Positions 3,068 to 55,463 of a DNA stretch of 64,000 nucleotides are shown here, one piece after another; the stretch's first letter is position 1; every line of letters starts with the position of its first letter. The position numbers and the translations under genes are program-made. Where the stretch lies: sequence record ON862890.1, one strand, 5' to 3'. Source of the DNA: Escherichia phage A221. The notes below the pieces were generated by a model. That model had not been told where the DNA came from and ran no database searches. It was given only the letters and a program-made list of their open reading frames with translations.

Positions 3068-3403
3068 ATGACACAACTCAAGAACTTCACCGCCGATGAC
3101 ATGTTTGCCTTCCAGGGTGCTGAGCACTTTGCTGACGGCTCCGTACCTCGCATCTACTACTTCTCCGACGAAGAAATGGAAGATTTCTTCTCCCTGATGG
3201 AAAAGGACTACGAACCAGACGACTTCGTTTATATCATCCATCACGCTGAAGGACTGACATTGGGTTGGACGGCCAACAACGAACCAGAAGAAGTAAACTT
3301 TCCTGAAGGTATCATGTCAGAGCGCGTCGAATATCTACTGGAAGCTCTGGACCCCCACACCCTCCCGCTCTGGGCGATGTCTGTAGCCCAAGTTCAAAAA
3401 TAA
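3068..3403 (+). CDS. hypothetical protein
   Basis: ATG preceded by AGGAACTATATC motif; tool start 3047 is TTG. Confidence 0.5.
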   Translation: MTQLKNFTADDMFAFQGAEHFADGSVPRIYYFSDEEMEDFFSLMEKDYEPDDFVYIIHHAEGLTLGWTANNEPEEVNFPEGIMSERVEYLLEALDPHTLPLWAMSVAQVQK

Positions 3404-3407
3404 GATA

Positions 3408-3432
3408 AGGGGGCTGACGCTCCCTTTTGGTT
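3408..3432 (+). terminator. rho-independent terminator
   Basis: GC-rich hairpin GGGGGC-TGAC-GCTCCC (one G-U wobble) followed by TTTTGGTTT. Confidence 0.5.
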
Positions 3433-3478
3433 TCGCTAATTAGAAGAAACCGCCGTTAATTCAGTCAGGAGATATAAA

Positions 3479-6199
3479 ATGTCAAAGCTAAGTTTCCTCC
3501 AGTTCATGCAGGAAAGAGATCAGTTGGACGAAGCGTTCAACTCCGCTCCGTATGAGCTGACCATGGGCAAGAAGAACGCAGGCGATGTGTTCTTCACCTT
3601 CATCGACGAAGATGAAAAGGAATACCGTATTCAGTTCTATACCCCTCAGGGGCTGGGTAAGAGTGTTCGTCAGGTTTTCATCGGCCAGAAGCGCGGCTCC
3701 GTCTATCCTGACGCCATCGCTCGCTTCAAGAACCCAATGCGCGTTATCGCTTCCATGATCGAAGCGACCAAACAATTCATGGCGACTCCTCTGGGTAAGA
3801 CCATCGATGGCTTTGCTGTCAACTTCTCTAAGAAAGCGCTGGATCGCGGTATGACCCTGATTCCTAAGATCATCCGCCAGTCCGGCCTGAAACAGAAACT
3901 GAATGTCATGGACCTGACCTACGCGCCTGTCCCCGACCGTGGTTATGTGTGGCTGGTCCGCAAGGGTAAAGATCCGGCGCAGGTATTTGACGGTCCGAAG
4001 ATGCAGGGTATCACCTGGGACGACCCAGACAAGGTCGGTGACGTTCCGGTTCAGAACAATACTCCGGATGTGGGTGTGTCATCTTCTGTTGATAATTCCA
4101 ACGGATGGAAATTAACTTCAAACGGGGATCAGCCCATGTTGTTATGGGCTGGTAAGGAGAGAGGCCGCATGAACACGGCAAATATCGCTCCCCACTACAA
4201 TGAGCCGGGCGTGTATGTTGGCGCATACATGAATGAGAAACCTGTGCGTGGGCAAAGTGCTGATTTCATTGCTCGTCAGTTGAAATTACCGCAAGTCCCT
4301 ATCAATATCCTGAATGATTTCACCATGGCGTCTACAAAATTTTGGAAAGGTTCTCAAAACAGTTCAGACAGAAATAACCCAGCCAACATTATCGGTTCTG
4401 GAACTGCTGTTATTGATGCCAAACGACTTGGTGCTCGAGAAGTAAACGTGGAACGATTCAAAAACGGTGTTCGCATGCGTTCTCAAAACGGTGACGTCGA
4501 CATCAGTATTTCCGACCCAGACTTTTCAAATGCAGCAAGTGCGACTGATGCTGCCACTGCCTCTGTTGTGGTCAAAAACGGGCGTTACGAAGGTGCCATC
4601 AATTCAAAGCGCAAGATTGCCCGCATCTCGAACGAGCAGGGTACTGAATGGGATATCATCGGTGTCAACGGGGAAACCCTTGTCTCTATCAAGTTGAACA
4701 AAGTGTCTAAATCCGCATCGGATTCGACCGAGGGTGCAACCAGTGTTGATCAATTACGTGACAGCGGTTTCATCGCTCGTGTTCTGGGTATCATTGATAC
4801 CAACGTTGGGCTGGACACTTCTATTCTTCCTGGTGAAAACATCCGTCGTGTGGGCGCTGGTCGTTACACGACAGCAGGCGGGTTGGTTATCGTTGTCAAC
4901 TTCACAAACGTCCTCGCTGGTTTCGTTCAATACTCAGTTTTCAGCGAAATTGCTGAAGAGGAGAGCGTGGCCAAAGGTAGCGCCCGTGACGTCGCCAATG
5001 CGGTAATTGCGTCCATCTTTGAGGTTGCCAAGACCCAGTACACTGGCAAATGGGAAATTAGCGCAGTGCCAACAAGCGCTCCATATCCTATCAAAGCCAT
5101 TCGCCGTTCTCGGGGCTGGGGTTATGTGGAAACCGCAAACTGGACTCTGACAGTGTCCGACGCTGTCCTGAATCGTGTGAAGCCAGGGAAAACTGCTCTA
5201 CTGGAACTCATCAAAGAACCTCCGCGTGGCAAGCACCCGCTGGAAATCATCCCAGAGAAGGGCGACAAGACCCTGATGCTGAAAGATCGTATTACCGGGG
5301 CCATCTATGGTTCTATCGACCTGAATGCCCAAGGCGCTGATCTGGTCAACTCTGGAACCCTGAAGATACCAAGCAACGCCATGGTGTTTGGTGAGACTGT
5401 CAACGGTATGTCCATCACTTGGTCTGGCGTCAATTTCCCGAAAACTGGGAAGTATGATGGTGCTGTATTGACCACGAATGTGACCTATTACTACGACAAA
5501 GGCAAAGTGGCGATCACGCCTATTGTATCCAATAAAGGTCGTACCCTGAACAATCCGAAGACATATGAACTTACTTTGAAGAAAGATATTGTTCAGGCCG
5601 TGATCGATGAAATTTCTTCTAAAATGGAAATGATATCTCGGAATATACAAACTCTGAAAAGCACGTCGTATAATCCGAAACAAGTATTTTTGGACGACAT
5701 TTCTGTTGACAACAACGGTTCAGTCCTTTGGCGCGGGTACGACATGGCGGATCGCCGCACTAATGAATTTATGTTGGGTATCCTGTCCAAAGAAACCGAG
5801 AGACTGGAGAAAGAGTCGAGTACTGCGAAGAAGACTGGTGCCGACCTTGCGGCATACGCCGACTCCATCCGCGACAACGCACCAAAAGGCCGCGACCTGG
5901 ATTGGCAGATCTATGCAAGCCGTGATGGTCAGACTCTGAACGTGGACTGGGATATCACCTTCCGCCGCAACACAACTGAAGGGGCATATCGCGAGTTCAA
6001 ATCTCAGATTGACCGCGCCAACCAGTACCTGCAGACTCTGTACCGGGATGCGAAGTCCAAGGGTTACAACCCGACTGAACCAAACCTGATGACTCTGGAT
6101 AGCGCCCAGCAGTCTGACCAGTGGGCACGAGACTACGGGGAAGGCGCATACAGCGAGTACGAGCAGTCCCTGGGTGGCAACATGCAGATTAAGATCTGA
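3479..6199 (+). CDS. large hypothetical protein (906 aa), function unknown
   Basis: Long ORF with RBS AGGAG; no polymerase or fiber motifs recognised; central third shows different codon choice from flanks. Confidence 0.6.
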   Translation: MSKLSFLQFMQERDQLDEAFNSAPYELTMGKKNAGDVFFTFIDEDEKEYRIQFYTPQGLGKSVRQVFIGQKRGSVYPDAIARFKNPMRVIASMIEATKQFMATPLGKTIDGFAVNFSKKALDRGMTLIPKIIRQSGLKQKLNVMDLTYAPVPDRGYVWLVRKGKDPAQVFDGPKMQGITWDDPDKVGDVPVQNNTPDVGVSSSVDNSNGWKLTSNGDQPMLLWAGKERGRMNTANIAPHYNEPGVYVGAYMNEKPVRGQSADFIARQLKLPQVPINILNDFTMASTKFWKGSQNSSDRNNPANIIGSGTAVIDAKRLGAREVNVERFKNGVRMRSQNGDVDISISDPDFSNAASATDAATASVVVKNGRYEGAINSKRKIARISNEQGTEWDIIGVNGETLVSIKLNKVSKSASDSTEGATSVDQLRDSGFIARVLGIIDTNVGLDTSILPGENIRRVGAGRYTTAGGLVIVVNFTNVLAGFVQYSVFSEIAEEESVAKGSARDVANAVIASIFEVAKTQYTGKWEISAVPTSAPYPIKAIRRSRGWGYVETANWTLTVSDAVLNRVKPGKTALLELIKEPPRGKHPLEIIPEKGDKTLMLKDRITGAIYGSIDLNAQGADLVNSGTLKIPSNAMVFGETVNGMSITWSGVNFPKTGKYDGAVLTTNVTYYYDKGKVAITPIVSNKGRTLNNPKTYELTLKKDIVQAVIDEISSKMEMISRNIQTLKSTSYNPKQVFLDDISVDNNGSVLWRGYDMADRRTNEFMLGILSKETERLEKESSTAKKTGADLAAYADSIRDNAPKGRDLDWQIYASRDGQTLNVDWDITFRRNTTEGAYREFKSQIDRANQYLQTLYRDAKSKGYNPTEPNLMTLDSAQQSDQWARDYGEGAYSEYEQSLGGNMQIKI

Positions 6200-9189: not shown

Positions 9190-9203
9190 TCCATACGTGT
9201 AAC

Positions 9204-9226
9204 ATAGGGGAGGCAACTCCCCCTAT
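9204..9226 (+). terminator. stable hairpin (possible terminator or RNA-stability element)
   Basis: ATAGGGGAG-GCAA-CTCCCCCTAT stem-loop with GNRA-like loop; no clear U tract. Confidence 0.35.
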
Positions 9227-9373
9227 CAGGTCTTGGGAGGAGATCACAGTCATTCAATCCTCTTTAGGCGCTCTCTGGGTTGCTGACACATTCAGAACAA
9301 AGTCTCCCCCAGCTCCTCGAGTAGTTCACTTTCACTTTAAATACCTCTGCATTCATTGTGGAGGTATTTTCTT

Positions 9374-13479: not shown

Positions 13480-13510
13480 ATTGGTCTAAACATACTACCG
13501 TTATATCATC

Positions 13511-13535
13511 AGGGGTGAGAGATCACCCCTTATTA
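13511..13535 (+). terminator. terminator-like hairpin
   Basis: Hairpin AGGGGTGA-GAGA-TCACCCCT followed by TATTAATC. Confidence 0.5.
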
Positions 13536-13549
13536 ATCAGGAAAGAAAC

Positions 13550-14653
13550 ATGAGCGAACAGAAACAATTCTCCGTATTCGACCCAAGCTCGGACAACACT
13601 GGTCTACCGTTCTTCGGTGACCCAGTGAGCATTCAGCGTTACGATGTCGTGGCCTGGCCATTCGTACAGAAGTGGTATGAGAAAGGTCTCAGTCAGTTCT
13701 GGCGTCCTGAAGAGGTGGACATCACCAAGGACAAGGCAGACTTTGCTACCCTGAACGAAGCCGAGAAGCATGTCTACTTCAGCAACCTGAAGCGCCAGAC
13801 CATGCTGGACTCTATCCAGGGTGCGGCTCCGTTCGAGGCGTTTGGTCCATGGGCGTCTACCCCTGAAATGCAGTTTGCTGTCCTTGAATGGACGCGCCAG
13901 GAAGCCATTCACTCTTTATCGTACACCCACATTTTGCGCAACACTGTGAACGATCCAGGTATCGTGTTTGACCACGTACTGGATGTTGCAGAGATCGTGG
14001 ACTGTGCTCACCAGATCAGTGTGTACTACGATGACATGGTACAGTACAGTGGCATGCGTATGGCTGGACGCATCTTCACCCGAGAAGATCTGATGAATGC
14101 CAAACGCGCATTCTGGCGTGCTCTGTTTGCTGCCAACACACTGGAAGGCATCCGCTTCTACGTGTCCTTTGCATGCTCTTGGGCATTCACACAGTTTCAG
14201 AAGAAGATGGAAGGCAATGCCAAAATCATTCGACAGATCGCCCGTGATGAGCAGGATCACCTGATCCTGACCCAGACGCTGCTAAACCGCCTGCCTGGTA
14301 TGGACCCCGACTTTGCAATCATCCGTGAGGAACTGCGTGGTGAGATGACCCAGATGTTCCTGGACGTGGTCCATCAGGAGAAGGAGTGGGCGAACTACCT
14401 ATTCAAAGACGGTTCCATCCTGGGGCTGAACGCCAAGATCCTTCATCAGATGGTAGACTGGCTGGCAACCCACCGGATGGGCGCTATCGGGCATCCATAT
14501 CCCGGTGAACCTCGCAAGGAGAACCCAGTCCCATGGATTAATGACTGGCTAGATAATAAGGCAATGCAGTACGCGTTGCAGGAAGCGGAAGCTCCTGATT
14601 ATCTGATGGGTGTACTGACTGGTTCGGTATCCGATGGCCTCAAATTCGCTTAA
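13550..14653 (+). CDS. nrdB: ribonucleotide reductase class Ia small subunit
   Basis: 367 aa immediately downstream of nrdA; ferritin-like helical protein of expected size with C-terminal aromatic tail. Confidence 0.8.
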   Translation: MSEQKQFSVFDPSSDNTGLPFFGDPVSIQRYDVVAWPFVQKWYEKGLSQFWRPEEVDITKDKADFATLNEAEKHVYFSNLKRQTMLDSIQGAAPFEAFGPWASTPEMQFAVLEWTRQEAIHSLSYTHILRNTVNDPGIVFDHVLDVAEIVDCAHQISVYYDDMVQYSGMRMAGRIFTREDLMNAKRAFWRALFAANTLEGIRFYVSFACSWAFTQFQKKMEGNAKIIRQIARDEQDHLILTQTLLNRLPGMDPDFAIIREELRGEMTQMFLDVVHQEKEWANYLFKDGSILGLNAKILHQMVDWLATHRMGAIGHPYPGEPRKENPVPWINDWLDNKAMQYALQEAEAPDYLMGVLTGSVSDGLKFA

Positions 14654-36367: not shown

Positions 36368-37798
36368 ATGATCCCTATCCTTGAAACAGTCCACCGACTT
36401 CGCGAAACCAAAGGCAGCAATGCGAAGAAAGCCGTGCTGACCGAAGCATTCAAGAACAACCCAGACTTGGCAGACTTCCTGCAGTATGTCTATGACCCAA
36501 TGACGTCGTTCTATCGGACTGAGTTGAAGCTCAGCGCGTATCCTCGCATGCTCGTCCGTGAGAAGACTGATGACATTAGCGAAGTCTATGAAGTCCTCGA
36601 CCAGATGGCACAGCGCCTTGTCGGTGGCCAAAAGGCTGATGCCCTGTTGGCCTCTGTCGCCCTGAAGATGGATCCCCAATACCACGAACTCATTCAGATG
36701 ATCCTAGACCGTGATATCAAGGCGGGTATCGCTGAGAAGGGCATCAACGCTGCATTCAACGCCGCCGGAGGCACTGGACGCCTGATCAACATCCTTCCAT
36801 ATCATCGTTATGACAACATGACGATTGACCTGCTGAAGAAGATGGACTTCAAGCGCGGCGTCTACAGCCAGCTGAAGTCAGACGGTATGTTCGCCAACAT
36901 CATATGTCGGTACAATAAAGAGCCTGAGATTCGCTCTCGCTCCGGTTCCCTTATCGCAGGTGGTTCGGTTGATAACCTTTCACTGGTGTTCAAAGACCTG
37001 ATCTACGATGCGGGGATTGGTGAGAGTGTGTTCCATGGTGAACTTCTCGTTGTTGACCTCAAGTCGAATACCATCCTGCCTCGTGCTGTCGGTAACGGTA
37101 AACTCAACAGCGTGATTCAGACAGGAGAACCCCTGGAAGATCGTTATCGGGTGATCTACCGGGTGTGGGATGTTGTGCCGTATGAACAATGGTTCAACGC
37201 CCAGCGCGTGGACACCCCGTATGAGCGCCGCTTCGATATTATCCAGCAACTGTTTGATGAAGACGACGGTCTGGTTCAGGTTCAAGAAACCCGCGTTGTT
37301 CACTCATTTGCCGAAGCCGTCGACCACTTCAAAGACGCGCTGGCTCGCAAAGAAGAAGGCACGATATGTAAGGCCGCAGACATGCCGTGGGAAGATGGTA
37401 CTTCTTCTGAAGGTCTGAAGCTGAAGATGGAGGTTGAGTGTGACCTTGAAATCGTGGGCTTCAACGAGGCTGACAAGAAGGGTAAACACGCCAAGACTTT
37501 TGGCTCACTGATTTGTAAAACTTCCGACAGCCTGCTTGTCGTTGGCGTATCAGGGATCTCAGATGAGCTGAGACGCCATATGTGGGAGAACCAGGGCGAC
37601 TACATTGGCAAGATCGCCGCAGTGCTCTCCAATGGCGTACAGGATAAGACCGATGATGCGATGAAGTCTTTGTTCCTACCTCGCCTTGTAGAAGTCCGCA
37701 TTGACAAGAAAGTGGCCAACACACTGGATGAAGTCTATGCGATACAGAAAGCGTACATTGAAAACATCGCATTCCTGTTGGAGAAGAGTAATGGGTGA
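36368..37798 (+). CDS. 30: ATP-dependent DNA ligase (T4 gp30-like)
   Basis: Adenylation motif LKSDG (KxDG); 476 aa vs T4 ligase 487 aa. Confidence 0.8.
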   Translation: MIPILETVHRLRETKGSNAKKAVLTEAFKNNPDLADFLQYVYDPMTSFYRTELKLSAYPRMLVREKTDDISEVYEVLDQMAQRLVGGQKADALLASVALKMDPQYHELIQMILDRDIKAGIAEKGINAAFNAAGGTGRLINILPYHRYDNMTIDLLKKMDFKRGVYSQLKSDGMFANIICRYNKEPEIRSRSGSLIAGGSVDNLSLVFKDLIYDAGIGESVFHGELLVVDLKSNTILPRAVGNGKLNSVIQTGEPLEDRYRVIYRVWDVVPYEQWFNAQRVDTPYERRFDIIQQLFDEDDGLVQVQETRVVHSFAEAVDHFKDALARKEEGTICKAADMPWEDGTSSEGLKLKMEVECDLEIVGFNEADKKGKHAKTFGSLICKTSDSLLVVGVSGISDELRRHMWENQGDYIGKIAAVLSNGVQDKTDDAMKSLFLPRLVEVRIDKKVANTLDEVYAIQKAYIENIAFLLEKSNG

Positions 37799-37802
37799 GT
37801 AT

Positions 37803-38024
37803 ATGAGTTTCTGGTGGGCGAAGTTCTTGGTTGAACTTCAGATATCCGGCATCGTCTTCTTGATCGCCGTGATCCTAGTTGCCCGTTCGGCGTTCAAGCA
37901 ATGGCGCTGCAAACACAGCACCTATCGTGAGAACCATGCTTGCCATGCTATCTGCACCCATTGCGGGAAGGATCTTGGGTTTGTAGGCACTGTTCGCGAG
38001 ATGAAGAAACACAAAGAGGTGTGA
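37803..38024 (+). CDS. small membrane protein with Cys/His motif
   Basis: N-terminal hydrophobic helix; CKHS...CHAICTHCG; ATG just after ligase stop. Confidence 0.4.
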   Translation: MSFWWAKFLVELQISGIVFLIAVILVARSAFKQWRCKHSTYRENHACHAICTHCGKDLGFVGTVREMKKHKEV

Positions 38025-46914: not shown

Positions 46915-47253
46915 TCAGAGATAAGATTTACCGAGTTCGGTCAGGCGATAGAACGTCACCTCAGTGTTCGGCCAGTTCACGTAAGAACCGTCATGAACCA
47001 TTGAGCCAGCTGGTTCGATCAACCCCTTGGCGAGCAGGGAAGCCCCTGTGCGGGTGTCCCATGGGTCGCCTTTGACGGAGGTGAAACCACCAGCGTTCGG
47101 GCATACCTGGAACGTCCAGACGGTGTTGCCCTTGTCATTGGTCCAGGATTTGGGATGCAAGTACCATTGACCATAACGGTAATGACCTTTCTCAAAGTTC
47201 TCTATCCCGTAGAGAACCGAGAGTTGGTGTCCTGTGATGCGCGGCTTTTTCAT
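46915..47253 (-). CDS. hypothetical protein
   Basis: Internal ATG (MKKPRITGH) chosen; tool start 47304 upstream in-frame. Confidence 0.35.
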   Translation of the reverse strand: MKKPRITGHQLSVLYGIENFEKGHYRYGQWYLHPKSWTNDKGNTVWTFQVCPNAGGFTSVKGDPWDTRTGASLLAKGLIEPAGSMVHDGSYVNWPNTEVTFYRLTELGKSYL

Positions 47254-47567
47254 GACAATACTCCTTTCAGAGCCAAAACGGAAAGCACACCAATAATCAA
47301 CCATGTCGGGATAATCGGCTTGCAGTTCATGTGGGTTTCTCCACCTTCGATGTTCGGACTTCCTTGTATAAGAACGTGTTTACAGGAAGCTCTGAACGTC
47401 ATTACACAGCCCATCAACACAATCGGCCTGATATAATAACCCGTTTTAGTTTGCTTCACGATACATGGAGAGGAGAAGCGCAGATATGGATCCCCTTTCC
47501 GGTAGCCTGTGATTGTGACCTTCTGCACTTCAGAAGGCACTTTTTGGCCAGGAAAATAAATTTTCAT
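47250..47567 (-). CDS. hypothetical protein with C-terminal hydrophobic helix
   Basis: 105 aa; overlaps neighbours by 4 nt. Confidence 0.4.
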   Translation of the reverse strand: MKIYFPGQKVPSEVQKVTITGYRKGDPYLRFSSPCIVKQTKTGYYIRPIVLMGCVMTFRASCKHVLIQGSPNIEGGETHMNCKPIIPTWLIIGVLSVLALKGVLS

Positions 47568-48124
47568 ATTTCAATCCCCAGATTGGTGTATAACAACTCA
47601 GACAGGGTTACAGGGCGCTTGAATTGTTCCCAACTACAGTTCAGGTATTCACGTTCTTCACGCATTTCACTGTGAAGATGACCATGGATATTATACGCCC
47701 AGCGGTCTAATTGATAAGGAACGTGAGTGGTCAGCACACGACCAACCGGAGTATCACGCTCATACATCGCACCAAAGGAGCTAATCTATCCCTCTTGATA
47801 TAGCTTCATCAACATCTTGAAGCTGTCATGGTTGCCTTGCGCCACCCTGATGATAAAGTTCGGTCGCCAGTCATCGGGAACCGGGCGGCGCTTGAACTCA
47901 TCAATATTCCGCTTGGCACCCTCGCGCATCAGGCGAATGAACCCCTCAGCCCCGATGAAGCAGATGTCGCCTGCAAGTTCAAGGACGTCTCGTGACTTCA
48001 GCCCCTGAAAGATACTGTCGATAACTGCAGCATCATGCGCCTCTTGGGTATCGAACCCACGGGGCTTGAAGATCTTCTTGTGCCCAAGGTGGGTGTCTCC
48101 CAGATACTTCACAATTCCTGCCAT
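47564..48124 (-). CDS. calcineurin-like metallophosphoesterase interrupted by one in-frame TAG (47786-47788)
   Basis: Motifs GDTHLG, GDICFIG, GNHD upstream of TAG and HGHLH downstream, all in the same frame; RBS GAGGAG before ATG 48124. Confidence 0.55.
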
Positions 48125-48465
48125 TATGGTCTCCTCAACCATTCTAAAATCGGTACGTTCACAAACCCTTTATGCCAGCGATGTGGTTTATGGCCTCTGT
48201 TGTGTTCGAGCAAACACGTATCCGGTGGGACACTGAAGTGGATGCCTTCGATGTCGTAGTAATGCCCATCAATCAGAGTATACACATGACCTTCGGTCTG
48301 ACTGTAATGGATCTCTGCTTGAGGGTACACGTGCTTCAACAACAGAGCGACCTGGTAACACTTCCCGTTCTTCCCCACGTACTCGACATCCACCTGTTGT
48401 GGAAACACATCTTTGACAAAGTTTATCAATCTCGTGATGTCATTTACAACAACCGAACGTTTCAT
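48124..48465 (-). CDS. hypothetical protein
   Basis: ATG with RBS GGAGAGG; stop overlaps next start (TAATG). Confidence 0.4.
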
Positions 48466-48529
48466 ATCGCCTCTCCCGAGGATTCGTTGGTGAACCAATG
48501 ATACTCTATACCGGATATAGAAAAGCCCC

Positions 48530-48832
48530 TCACGGGGCTTGATCGTCTTCATCAGGGAATATACGCCATCGACCTATTCCATACCACTCACCGATAGAGT
48601 TCCATGTCCTTTCCCCAGGCCAGCCGCCGACCGTGTAGTAATGCGCTACCAGCCGCCAGTAAGGAAGAGAGGCCATGTTCACGCCGCCGTCGGCCTTTAG
48701 GCAGGCCAAGTACCAATTCGTGAGACTGAACGCCTGAAATAACGGATGAAGGAACATGAAGTATAGGTAGCCCAATATGGCTGCGAACACCCCAGCTGTT
48801 ACGATCACACCGATGACAGTGAATACAATCAT
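48530..48832 (-). CDS. small membrane protein
   Basis: Two hydrophobic helices; 100 aa. Confidence 0.4.
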   Translation of the reverse strand: MIVFTVIGVIVTAGVFAAILGYLYFMFLHPLFQAFSLTNWYLACLKADGGVNMASLPYWRLVAHYYTVGGWPGERTWNSIGEWYGIGRWRIFPDEDDQAP

Positions 48833-52740: not shown

Positions 52741-54639
52741 TTATTCATCCTCAGTTTCAAATAGGCAAACATCGCTAAACCAGGTTTTGCGGTAATCGGC
52801 GGCCTCATCACCGAAGCCATTCTTCAGTGACTGTTGATAGCCATCGTCCAGCGTGACCGTCGTAGTATACGCATCCAGGTTGTTTAGAATACGTTTGAAG
52901 TCTTCAGTGCTGTTACCGCCAAGACCTTTCAGATATTTCTTCTTCGTGATCTTCTTGGCATCAGGTGTCTTCAGGAACTCCTCATACTCTGCGTTGTTCA
53001 TGAACTCATACATCACCTTACCACACCACACACGCATGTAAGGGGTGCGCAGGAGCTTCAGTCTGCCCTGACGGACGTACTCCGGCCAGTAGGTGCAATA
53101 CAGGGTGATCAACAACCCACGGATGTGGATGCCGTCATCGTCCGCATCGGTAGCCACAACAGTCTGTGGGTAACGGGTGATATCAAGGGGCTGGCCTGGC
53201 ACTGCGCCGCCATGGATCGTACACAGGTTCTTGAACTCTTCATTGTTCATCACCTTTGAGCGCGGGGCGTTCAGGCAGTTGATGAACTTACCACGAAGCG
53301 GGAACAACCCGATCTTCTTGGTGTCGCGGGCGTTCAGGATAGGATTGGAGGCACTATCACCCTCTGTCAGCAACAGGGAGCATCCGCTGCGGTCACCACG
53401 GGCGGTCGCCGGGTAATACTTCTCAATCTCACGATAATCCCGCTTGCTGATGTCCTTCTTGGCCTTTTCAAACTCAGCATCGTCCTGCTCATTGCGCAGG
53501 GAAGCCAGTTCTTTGCTCAGACCAGCCGTAACGAACTCAAGCGCCTTGCGGATCAGTTTATCACTGGGCTTGTACGACGTACCGAACTGGCTGACAGGAG
53601 TGGTCATGCGCTCCTTGGTCTGGCTGTCAAAGCGCGGGTTGTTGATGTCGGCGGCGATGAACAAGGACATGTGGTTCTTGATCATTGCTGGCTTCAGTTC
53701 GGTCTTGAACTTCTTCACCAGCTGGGGACGAATCGCTGCCACGATCTGGTCAGCAACATAATCAACGTGAGGACCACCGATGTGGGTGGCAATAGAGTTC
53801 ACGTATGATGCGTGCATGAACGTACCGGATGAAGGGGCTACAGCAACAGACCAATCCCCGGTTTCGTCAACAGCCGAACCAGCATGGAAGTAATCAACGA
53901 AGTGGCCAAAGCGGTCAATCCGGATTTGCTTCCCATTGAGAACAATCTTCAGGCGCGGGTTACACGCAGCCACTTCAAACGCGCGGCGATAGATCATCAG
54001 CAGGTTGTTCTGGTCAAGTCCTTTGACGCCCAGACGAGCATAGTCAGGGATCCAGGCGATGGATGTGCCGGGACTGTTCACGTTGCTGATGACTGGGTTA
54101 GATTTCTTGCTCATGTTGTCTTCAAACGTCTGAGTATAAGACTTCTTGCCGTCATTAGTCGTGACGCGGAACCATTTGGAGAACACGTTGACGAGGGACG
54201 CCCCTTCGCCATTCTGACCACCGGACTTCTGGTTGTTGTACTCTTCGTCTTCGTCGTTGAAGTTCGATCCCGCAAACAATTCTGAAAATAACATTTCTGG
54301 CAACCACATACCAGATTCATGCTTGACCACAGGGATACCCCCGTTGTCAGCAACGATGATTTGACCGTTCATCGGGGAAACTGTGACGGTGATTTCCGTC
54401 AGGGATTTACCCTCAGGGGTCTTGCTGTGGTCAACACAGTTGGTGATGATTTCATCAAACTGTTTGATAAGAGCGGGGTTATATTCAAAATTGTCTTTAA
54501 ACACAACTTTGTCTTTGCTGAGATCATATACCCAAGCCATCCCGACAGAAGAACGGATACTCCCTAGATGGCGCTCTGGGCGAAGGAGTATATGCTCGAT
54601 GTGTGAGAGCTTTTTGTATTTTCTGTTTACATCAACCAT
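52741..54639 (-). CDS. 39: DNA topoisomerase II large subunit (gp39 with gp60 portion fused; GyrB-like ATPase + TOPRIM)
   Basis: GHKL motif ITNCVDH, TOPRIM LLLTEGDSA; 632 aa single ORF; RBS GGAG. Confidence 0.85.
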   Translation of the reverse strand: MVDVNRKYKKLSHIEHILLRPERHLGSIRSSVGMAWVYDLSKDKVVFKDNFEYNPALIKQFDEIITNCVDHSKTPEGKSLTEITVTVSPMNGQIIVADNGGIPVVKHESGMWLPEMLFSELFAGSNFNDEDEEYNNQKSGGQNGEGASLVNVFSKWFRVTTNDGKKSYTQTFEDNMSKKSNPVISNVNSPGTSIAWIPDYARLGVKGLDQNNLLMIYRRAFEVAACNPRLKIVLNGKQIRIDRFGHFVDYFHAGSAVDETGDWSVAVAPSSGTFMHASYVNSIATHIGGPHVDYVADQIVAAIRPQLVKKFKTELKPAMIKNHMSLFIAADINNPRFDSQTKERMTTPVSQFGTSYKPSDKLIRKALEFVTAGLSKELASLRNEQDDAEFEKAKKDISKRDYREIEKYYPATARGDRSGCSLLLTEGDSASNPILNARDTKKIGLFPLRGKFINCLNAPRSKVMNNEEFKNLCTIHGGAVPGQPLDITRYPQTVVATDADDDGIHIRGLLITLYCTYWPEYVRQGRLKLLRTPYMRVWCGKVMYEFMNNAEYEEFLKTPDAKKITKKKYLKGLGGNSTEDFKRILNNLDAYTTTVTLDDGYQQSLKNGFGDEAADYRKTWFSDVCLFETEDE

Positions 54640-55463
54640 TATTATCTCCGTAAAATTTCAACCAGGCGGGATCTTCTTTTGGTATCCAACCTTTCTGAAA
54701 TTTAGATATACAAGTTTGAGCTGTGGCCTTAGAACAAACAGAGCTTAACCCGGTTTCTTTCAACATTAAACAATAACGGTTCTTCACTTTGTCTTCACCG
54801 TTACTATACCACCATTCAAAGAATTCACCAGCCAAGAGCCATTGTCGGGATTTACCCGTCTTTACGACAGTCGGGTGTTCCCCAAGGTTGTATGTTATTC
54901 ATGGGATTGTTCTGGCGCCACATAGCAGAATACCTCTCCCTTTCTTCTGGTCGCCTCATCCGTTCGGTGACTGATTTGGTAAGATTGGCTTTGTGTGCTT
55001 CGGAGTGTGGTATCCCTTTCCTGGATTTTGACAACCTGCGCCTTGATTCGTCATTCCAAGTGTAACCTCTCAAGCTATCCGCACGTTTCTTCTGTACTTC
55101 TGGGTTCAATGAGTTTTTCTTGGATTGCTTACGACAACGTTCCTTTTGTTCATCAGATGACATCACTTCTTTCATTCTGGTGGAATTATTTCTCCTCAAT
55201 TCCCCAAACTCTTTGTTGTTCCTAGACATGTTGTTCATCCCAGTCCATGCCTTCCTGATACCGGGGTTGAGTGGTTTTGTTCTCCAAAGTAGGTGATGTA
55301 CGACATAATGTTCTTCTGGTGTCAACCATACAAGATTAGAGAAGTGGTTAGTGCCACCCAAGCACACAGGGATTATATGGTGGCGTTCTTGATAAACGCC
55401 ATCCATTTTACCTCTCTGTATTGCTCTCTGTATGAGAGCGTCTAAGATGATTTCGTATTTCAT
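54632..55463 (-). pseudogene. HNH homing endonuclease disrupted by frameshift near 54850-54857
   Basis: N-terminal ORF has HNH motif HHIIPVCLGGTNHFSNLVWLTPEEH; C-terminal ORF in +1 frame is homologous to C-terminus of intact paralog 38500-39195; total length not a multiple of 3. Confidence 0.6.

Follow-up and report, generated by a model that had tools for sequence, protein, structure and literature searches.

A private amber codon interrupts a conserved gene for a predicted metallophosphoesterase in the sequence of Escherichia phage A221

In Escherichia phage A221, two open reading frames encoding 118 and 67 amino acids follow one another in a common frame on the minus strand (47786-48142 and 47564-47767), and their products look like the two halves of a single enzyme. 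Are they one gene broken by a stop codon, one gene whose stop codon is bypassed, or two genes? We addressed this question in a stretch of 64,000 nucleotides from the A221 sequence record (ON862890.1), hereafter the window; coordinates are those of the window unless a record is named. A preliminary description of the locus, made from the letters of the sequence, had claimed that a single amber codon splits an otherwise complete metallophosphoesterase gene. Translation confirmed the arrangement: only the TAG at 47788-47786 and six sense codons (ATT AGC TCC TTT GGT GCG) separate the two frames, the second of which opens with the ATG at 47767. The motifs quoted in that description are also present, namely GDTHLGH (48100-48080), GDICFIG (47971-47951) and GNHD (47836-47825) upstream of the TAG, and HGHLH (47686-47672) downstream of it. 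The features of the locus are as follows.

47564-48124, minus strand: phosphoesterase gene, disrupted, running from ATG 48124-48122 to TGA 47566-47564 (186 codons, the internal TAG being counted)
47786-47788, minus strand: premature amber codon TAG, at the position of Trp113 (TGG) in relatives
47786-48124, minus strand: CDS of the N-terminal fragment, 112 residues, with motifs I-III (D10/H12, D53, N98-H99-D100)
47564-47767, minus strand: C-terminal open reading frame, 67 residues, carrying H134 and H147/H149/H151
48131-48136, minus strand: GAGGAG resembling a Shine-Dalgarno sequence, read directly from the DNA and located 6 nt before the start codon at 48124
47250-47567, minus strand: downstream gene of 105 residues, whose ATG overlaps the phosphoesterase stop codon (ATGA, 47567-47564), an arrangement also annotated in relatives

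The frame is open from the ATG at 48142, as the preliminary description had it, but the true start is most likely the ATG at 48124-48122, 18 nt downstream. This start is preferred because M1-A2-G3 is invariant in all homologues, because four close relatives annotate a 561-nt CDS from there, and because the ATG follows the GAGGAG at 48136-48131 and overlaps the TAA that ends the gene before it (TAATG). Read from this start, the disrupted gene is collinear with a single 561-nt CDS in phages fGh-Ecl02, PC3, vB_CECAV_050 and RPN242, and a tblastn alignment of the PC3 protein to it shows 97.8% identity, no gaps and one stop. The PHROG 547 'phosphoesterase' profile is matched by the 118-residue frame at positions 23-115 (E 1e-24) and by the 67-residue frame at positions 139-202 (E 2e-15), and by the joined sequence at positions 23-202 (E 2e-44). 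The two frames thus carry consecutive segments of the same profile, indicating one gene cut in two rather than a chance juxtaposition of frames. GenBank lists the pieces as two CDSs, UTQ72683.1 (112 residues, from ATG 48124) and UTQ72682.1 (67 residues), both named 'putative serine/threonine protein phosphatase'. An exact-sequence look-up among approximately 15 billion proteins found each of them in one contig of 153,297 bp and nowhere else.

The minus-strand early genes of this region (47564-48552 and 47250-47567) are chained by stop/start overlaps, TAATG at 48126-48122 and ATGA at 47567-47564. Judged from the sequence, these overlaps imply translational coupling through the disrupted gene. 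The downstream gene of 105 residues is probably coupled in this way, and would thus be exposed to polarity from the premature stop.

The preliminary description had proposed comparison with related genomes as a check, and named as contrary evidence homologues in which the two halves are normally separate genes. By megablast, the window is 97-99% identical to Ackermannviridae phages, the best matches being Escherichia phages PC3 and PH4, phage RPN242, Enterobacter phage fGh-Ecl02 and Salmonella phage vB_CECAV_050. A DNA alignment of the phosphoesterase gene with four relatives of 97-98% identity contains no indels, and all four have the sense codon TGG (Trp113) where A221 has TAG; the halves are one gene in relatives, encoding a single protein of 186 residues. 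The central claim, that one amber codon breaks an otherwise complete gene of the metallophosphoesterase type, therefore stands. The lesion amounts to a single G>A change at 47787 (C>T on the plus strand), column 338 of the DNA alignment. A protein alignment of 13 full-length homologues, reaching down to 50% identity, has Trp113 in every sequence. Homologues were found by tblastn in 580 phage records, and in 571 of these a single location accounts for at least 80% of the protein.

Purifying selection on the gene is strong, as judged from substitution rates: dN/dS is 0.04 between Agtrevirus and Kuttervirus copies and 0.06 between PC3 and A221 (13 synonymous and three non-synonymous differences, the stop not being counted). 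Downstream of the stop, there are no changes in the gene that are private to A221. Given this lack of further decay, the lesion must be either very recent or not real. The locus thus has a single disabling lesion and no additional decay, with intact relatives under purifying selection, as expected of a recent pseudogene.

The TAG allele is private to A221. Scans for its exact pattern found nothing in IMG/VR and nothing in GTDB genomes, and the local haplotype of A221, with either base at the variable position, was found neither in IMG/VR nor in JGI metagenomes. The control pattern with TGG was present in three IMG/VR contigs.

What kind of protein has been interrupted? A Pfam scan of the joined protein and of both fragments gave no match at E<=1, including to the metallophosphoesterase models (Metallophos and Metallophos_2), and the family assignment rests on PHROGs, motifs and predicted fold. 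The NCBIfam model PdeM, a metallophosphoesterase, was matched below threshold (E 0.001; 18 bits against a cut-off of 150). A profile search of the PDB with the homologue alignment gave a marginal match to 1xm7 (E 0.03), the other matches being noise. D10, H12, D53, N98, H99, D100, H134, H147, H149 and H151 are invariant in the 13 homologues, and all of these metal-ligand residues are present in the A221 sequence, on either side of the TAG. They occur in the order characteristic of the metallophosphoesterase (MPP) superfamily: DxH, GD, GNH[D/E], H and GH/GHxH.

The fold was examined on an AlphaFold model of a homologue with 96% identity, P0001, rather than of the A221 protein itself (pLDDT 90.4, pTM 0.88). 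The P0001 model has the α/β sandwich of the MPP superfamily. A Foldseek search of the PDB with this model returned 1xm7 (AQ_1665) as the best match (E 1.3e-6, TM-score 0.59), followed by MJ0936, LpxH, GpdQ, Mre11 and Vps29; every one of these belongs to the calcineurin-like metallophosphoesterases. Residue 113 is located between a helix (102-110) and a strand (116-118) in the middle of the model's single domain. Fold and motifs together support the protein being a predicted metallophosphoesterase, and the label used in the preliminary description is backed by both. The name in GenBank is not: the PPP-type Ser/Thr protein phosphatase signatures GDxHG, GDxVDRG and GNHE are unmatched by the GDTHLG, GDICFIG and GNHD of this protein, no PPP family was found in Pfam or NCBIfam, and no PPP structures are among the Foldseek matches listed. 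In relatives, the annotations of neighbouring genes include a MazG-like pyrophosphatase, dCMP deaminase, subunits of topoisomerase II and the exonuclease DexA. These nucleotide and DNA enzymes suggest a role as a nucleotide or nucleic-acid phosphodiesterase. A literature search for the function of this protein in Ackermannviridae returned nothing relevant.

We consider it probable that a nonsense mutation has very recently abolished the function of this gene in A221, a gene that is conserved and selectively maintained, yet dispensable. A single G>A transition would have turned the invariant Trp113 codon, TGG, into an amber codon in this member of the genus Agtrevirus (family Ackermannviridae), in an early gene for a small enzyme of the metallophosphoesterase fold. 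Read as a normal stop, the TAG would end translation after 112 residues. The product would keep metal-binding motifs I-III. Missing from it would be the latter half of the fold, where His134 and H147-G-H149-L-H151 are found; lacking these four C-terminal histidines, the product should be catalytically dead. Occasional reinitiation at the ATG six codons downstream of the TAG, where the possible ribosome-binding site is only a weak GGTG, may yield the C-terminal piece of 67 residues. Neither piece would have a complete active site. The 220 nt left untranslated may also lower expression of the ATGA-joined gene of 105 residues. The lesion would most likely have arisen during isolation or propagation of the A221 stock. 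A221 is a wild isolate, obtained on the pig E. coli strain GXXW-1103; it is not described as a laboratory mutant, and mutagenesis is not mentioned (PMC10510151). The same paper, in which A221 (ON862890.1, an Agtrevirus) was given as oral therapy to piglets, is silent on the phosphoesterase gene (PMC10510151).

Other phages suggest that the gene can be lost. In Escherichia phage FEC14 (MG383452.2, 601-1184), the homologue is frameshifted by a 23-nt tandem duplication and appears in GenBank as two CDSs (ATW66909.1 and ATW66908.1). In Dickeya phage RC-2014, a limestonevirus, most of the gene is deleted, and a C-terminal remnant of ~75 nt (~24 codons) is left at about 2500-2572. Three Logan assemblies (P0015, P0016 and P0017) encode a normal N-terminus of ~70-85 residues followed by unrelated sequence; their contigs measure 1-2.7 kb, and the sequences look like frameshifted gene calls in short contigs of low quality. 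The independent breakage in FEC14 and RC-2014, together with the frameshifted Logan versions, indicates that loss of the gene is tolerated.

The alternative that survives best is that the TAG stems from an error in sequencing or in the consensus, the phage itself carrying TGG and an intact gene. We regard this as a real possibility, though not the likelier one. The TAG allele is a singleton in every collection searched, and the gene shows no relaxation of constraint. Ackermannviridae DNA contains hypermodified thymidines, which can disturb some sequencing chemistries. There is also a local anomaly. Three A221-private substitutions fall within 20 nt, at 47806 (Q107K), 47801 (synonymous, Leu) and 47787 (W113stop), and all three create a T on the plus strand. 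Among the 14 private substitutions in the surrounding 4.1 kb, a cluster of this kind has a probability of about 0.02 by simulation. A simple single-hit model does not predict it; several nucleotides may have changed in one event, a short tract may have been acquired by recombination from a relative that has not been sampled, or the consensus or assembly may be faulty at this spot. Set against this, 14 is the lowest number of private substitutions among the five phages compared, so the assembly is not rich in errors overall, and a deep short-read consensus rarely contains substitution errors. Losses of this kind also occur naturally, as the independently disrupted copies in FEC14 and RC-2014 show. 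On the side of an error, the A221 paper specifies neither sequencing platform nor coverage (PMC10510151).

A second private lesion, 7 kb away, adds to the case for an error. At 54877-54880, one extra G (+1) in a run of three, read on the minus strand as GGGG within CCTTGGGGAACACC, frameshifts the gene for an F-LimI-like HNH homing endonuclease of 276 residues (about 54635-55463), which adjoins the gene for the topoisomerase II large subunit. The tblastn match to this endonuclease is split between frame -3 (query 1-203) and frame -1 (query 195-276). The region measures 901 nt in A221 and 900 nt in PC3 and all 12 relatives listed, in which the gene length is intact. This frameshift is a second isolate-specific disruption, of a type to which sequencing errors give rise, and may be either real or a homopolymer sequencing error. 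It is the only frameshift among the other 86 PC3 proteins matched in the window, none of which contains an internal stop, and this argues against a generally faulty sequence.

The amber allele could also be both real and favoured by selection. A221 would then grow better on GXXW-1103 without the phosphoesterase, or through polarity on the coupled downstream gene, for instance because a protein that sets off an abortive-infection or defence system of the host is gone. On this account, the separate losses of this otherwise strongly conserved gene in FEC14 and the Dickeya limestoneviruses would reflect recurrent counter-selection that depends on the host. We think this improbable.

Also improbable is a functional bypass, in which full-length enzyme is made in useful amounts thanks to a host amber suppressor, a phage suppressor tRNA encoded beyond the window, or leaky readthrough. 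The part of the gene past the stop is fully intact, and the base after the stop is an A. The UAG-A context has been reported to favour amber suppression in E. coli. A programmed readthrough site can nevertheless be rejected, as no relative conserves the in-frame stop: the codon is Trp/TGG in the four close relatives, and Trp in all 13 full-length homologues. ARAGORN found no tRNA genes within the 64-kb window, and in the whole genome of PC3, the closest complete relative, it found just tRNA-Ser(GCU) and tRNA-Met(CAU); the search for a suppressor tRNA thus covered the window and PC3, the latter standing proxy for the remaining ~89 kb of A221, so that a suppressor is excluded there by proxy only. 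Among the 84 genes in the window whose C-terminal end could be aligned to PC3, the stop codon is TAA in 43, TGA in 33 and TAG in eight, and efficient suppression would extend the last eight. Insertion of anything but Trp would replace an invariant residue, and A221 is propagated on a wild isolate from pig rather than on a laboratory strain that carries a suppressor. Thus, of the explanations offered in the preliminary description, amber mutation with recent pseudogenisation and sequencing error hold up; programmed readthrough and phage-encoded suppression are disfavoured, because the stop is not conserved in relatives, TAG ends eight other genes, and the window and PC3 lack a suppressor tRNA.

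That TAG has been reassigned to a sense codon, or that the two frames are normally separate genes, can be dismissed: only the in-frame TAG itself speaks for it, and against it stand the single in-frame stop among the 87 of 92 annotated PC3 proteins that matched the window by tblastn (that of the phosphoesterase), the TAG at eight conserved gene ends, the absence of a tRNA(CUA) from the window and PC3, the near full-length homologue in one place in 571 of 580 phage records, and the single CDS of 186 residues annotated in the four close relatives inspected. A crude scan for adjacent same-frame open reading frames with one stop between them gave dozens of pairs and told us little; the homology-based tblastn comparison was the useful test.

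The A221 lesion is thus an ordinary isolate-specific knockout or a base-call error, and not a recoding signal. GenBank already shows it, in the form of a split annotation, and there is nothing unusual in an accessory phage gene with a private nonsense allele or an error.

The comparison with PC3 also revealed differences in gene content, at about 3400-4364, 9190-9370, 13480-13550 and 37790-38020 of the window. Four small PC3 CDSs (record 74636-74824, 74821-75162, 79415-79708 and 103803-104018) have no counterpart in the window, and neither do the N-terminal 189 residues of a PC3 protein of 800 residues (record 69180-71582). These differences resemble the mosaic indels that typically affect small accessory genes.

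Beyond annotation, the lesion matters little. The entries UTQ72683.1 and UTQ72682.1 should be combined and marked as a single disrupted gene, or else corrected upon resequencing. The name 'serine/threonine protein phosphatase', used throughout the Ackermannviridae, is unsupported, and 'metallophosphoesterase' would be safer. Given that A221 has been used therapeutically in piglets, a natural knockout would mean that the phage can infect that host productively without the gene. Should the lesion be real, A221 and the relatives with an intact copy would form a ready-made, isogenic-like pair for probing a widespread, strongly conserved and uncharacterised phage phosphoesterase.

Among known proteins, the A221 phosphoesterase most resembles the small calcineurin-like metallophosphoesterases AQ_1665 (1xm7) and MJ0936 (1s3l) and, more distantly, LpxH, GpdQ and Mre11. 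It shares with them the predicted fold and the motifs D10-x-H12, G52-D53, G97-N98-H99-D100, H134 and H147-x-H149-x-H151, but differs in lacking a Pfam metallophosphoesterase match and in a TM-score to 1xm7 of only 0.59. Full-length phage homologues in PHROG 547 include the early-region 'phosphoesterase' of T5-like phages (T5 orf4c), with 26-30% identity, and g187 of Yersinia phage phiR1-37, with 37% identity. Both are distant from the A221 protein, and we found no reported function for either in the searchable literature. The Ser/Thr protein phosphatase of phage lambda, a PPP enzyme and the source of the GenBank name, belongs to the same broad superfamily of dinuclear metallophosphoesterases, but its signatures GDxHG, GDxVDRG and GNHE do not occur in the A221 phosphoesterase. 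The closest parallel to the lesion itself is the split homologue of FEC14. There, as in A221, a conserved single gene has become two adjacent CDSs of the same name through an isolate-specific lesion, and the gene is non-essential; the FEC14 lesion is a frame-shifting tandem duplication of 23 nt, whereas that of A221 is a point nonsense change, TGG>TAG.
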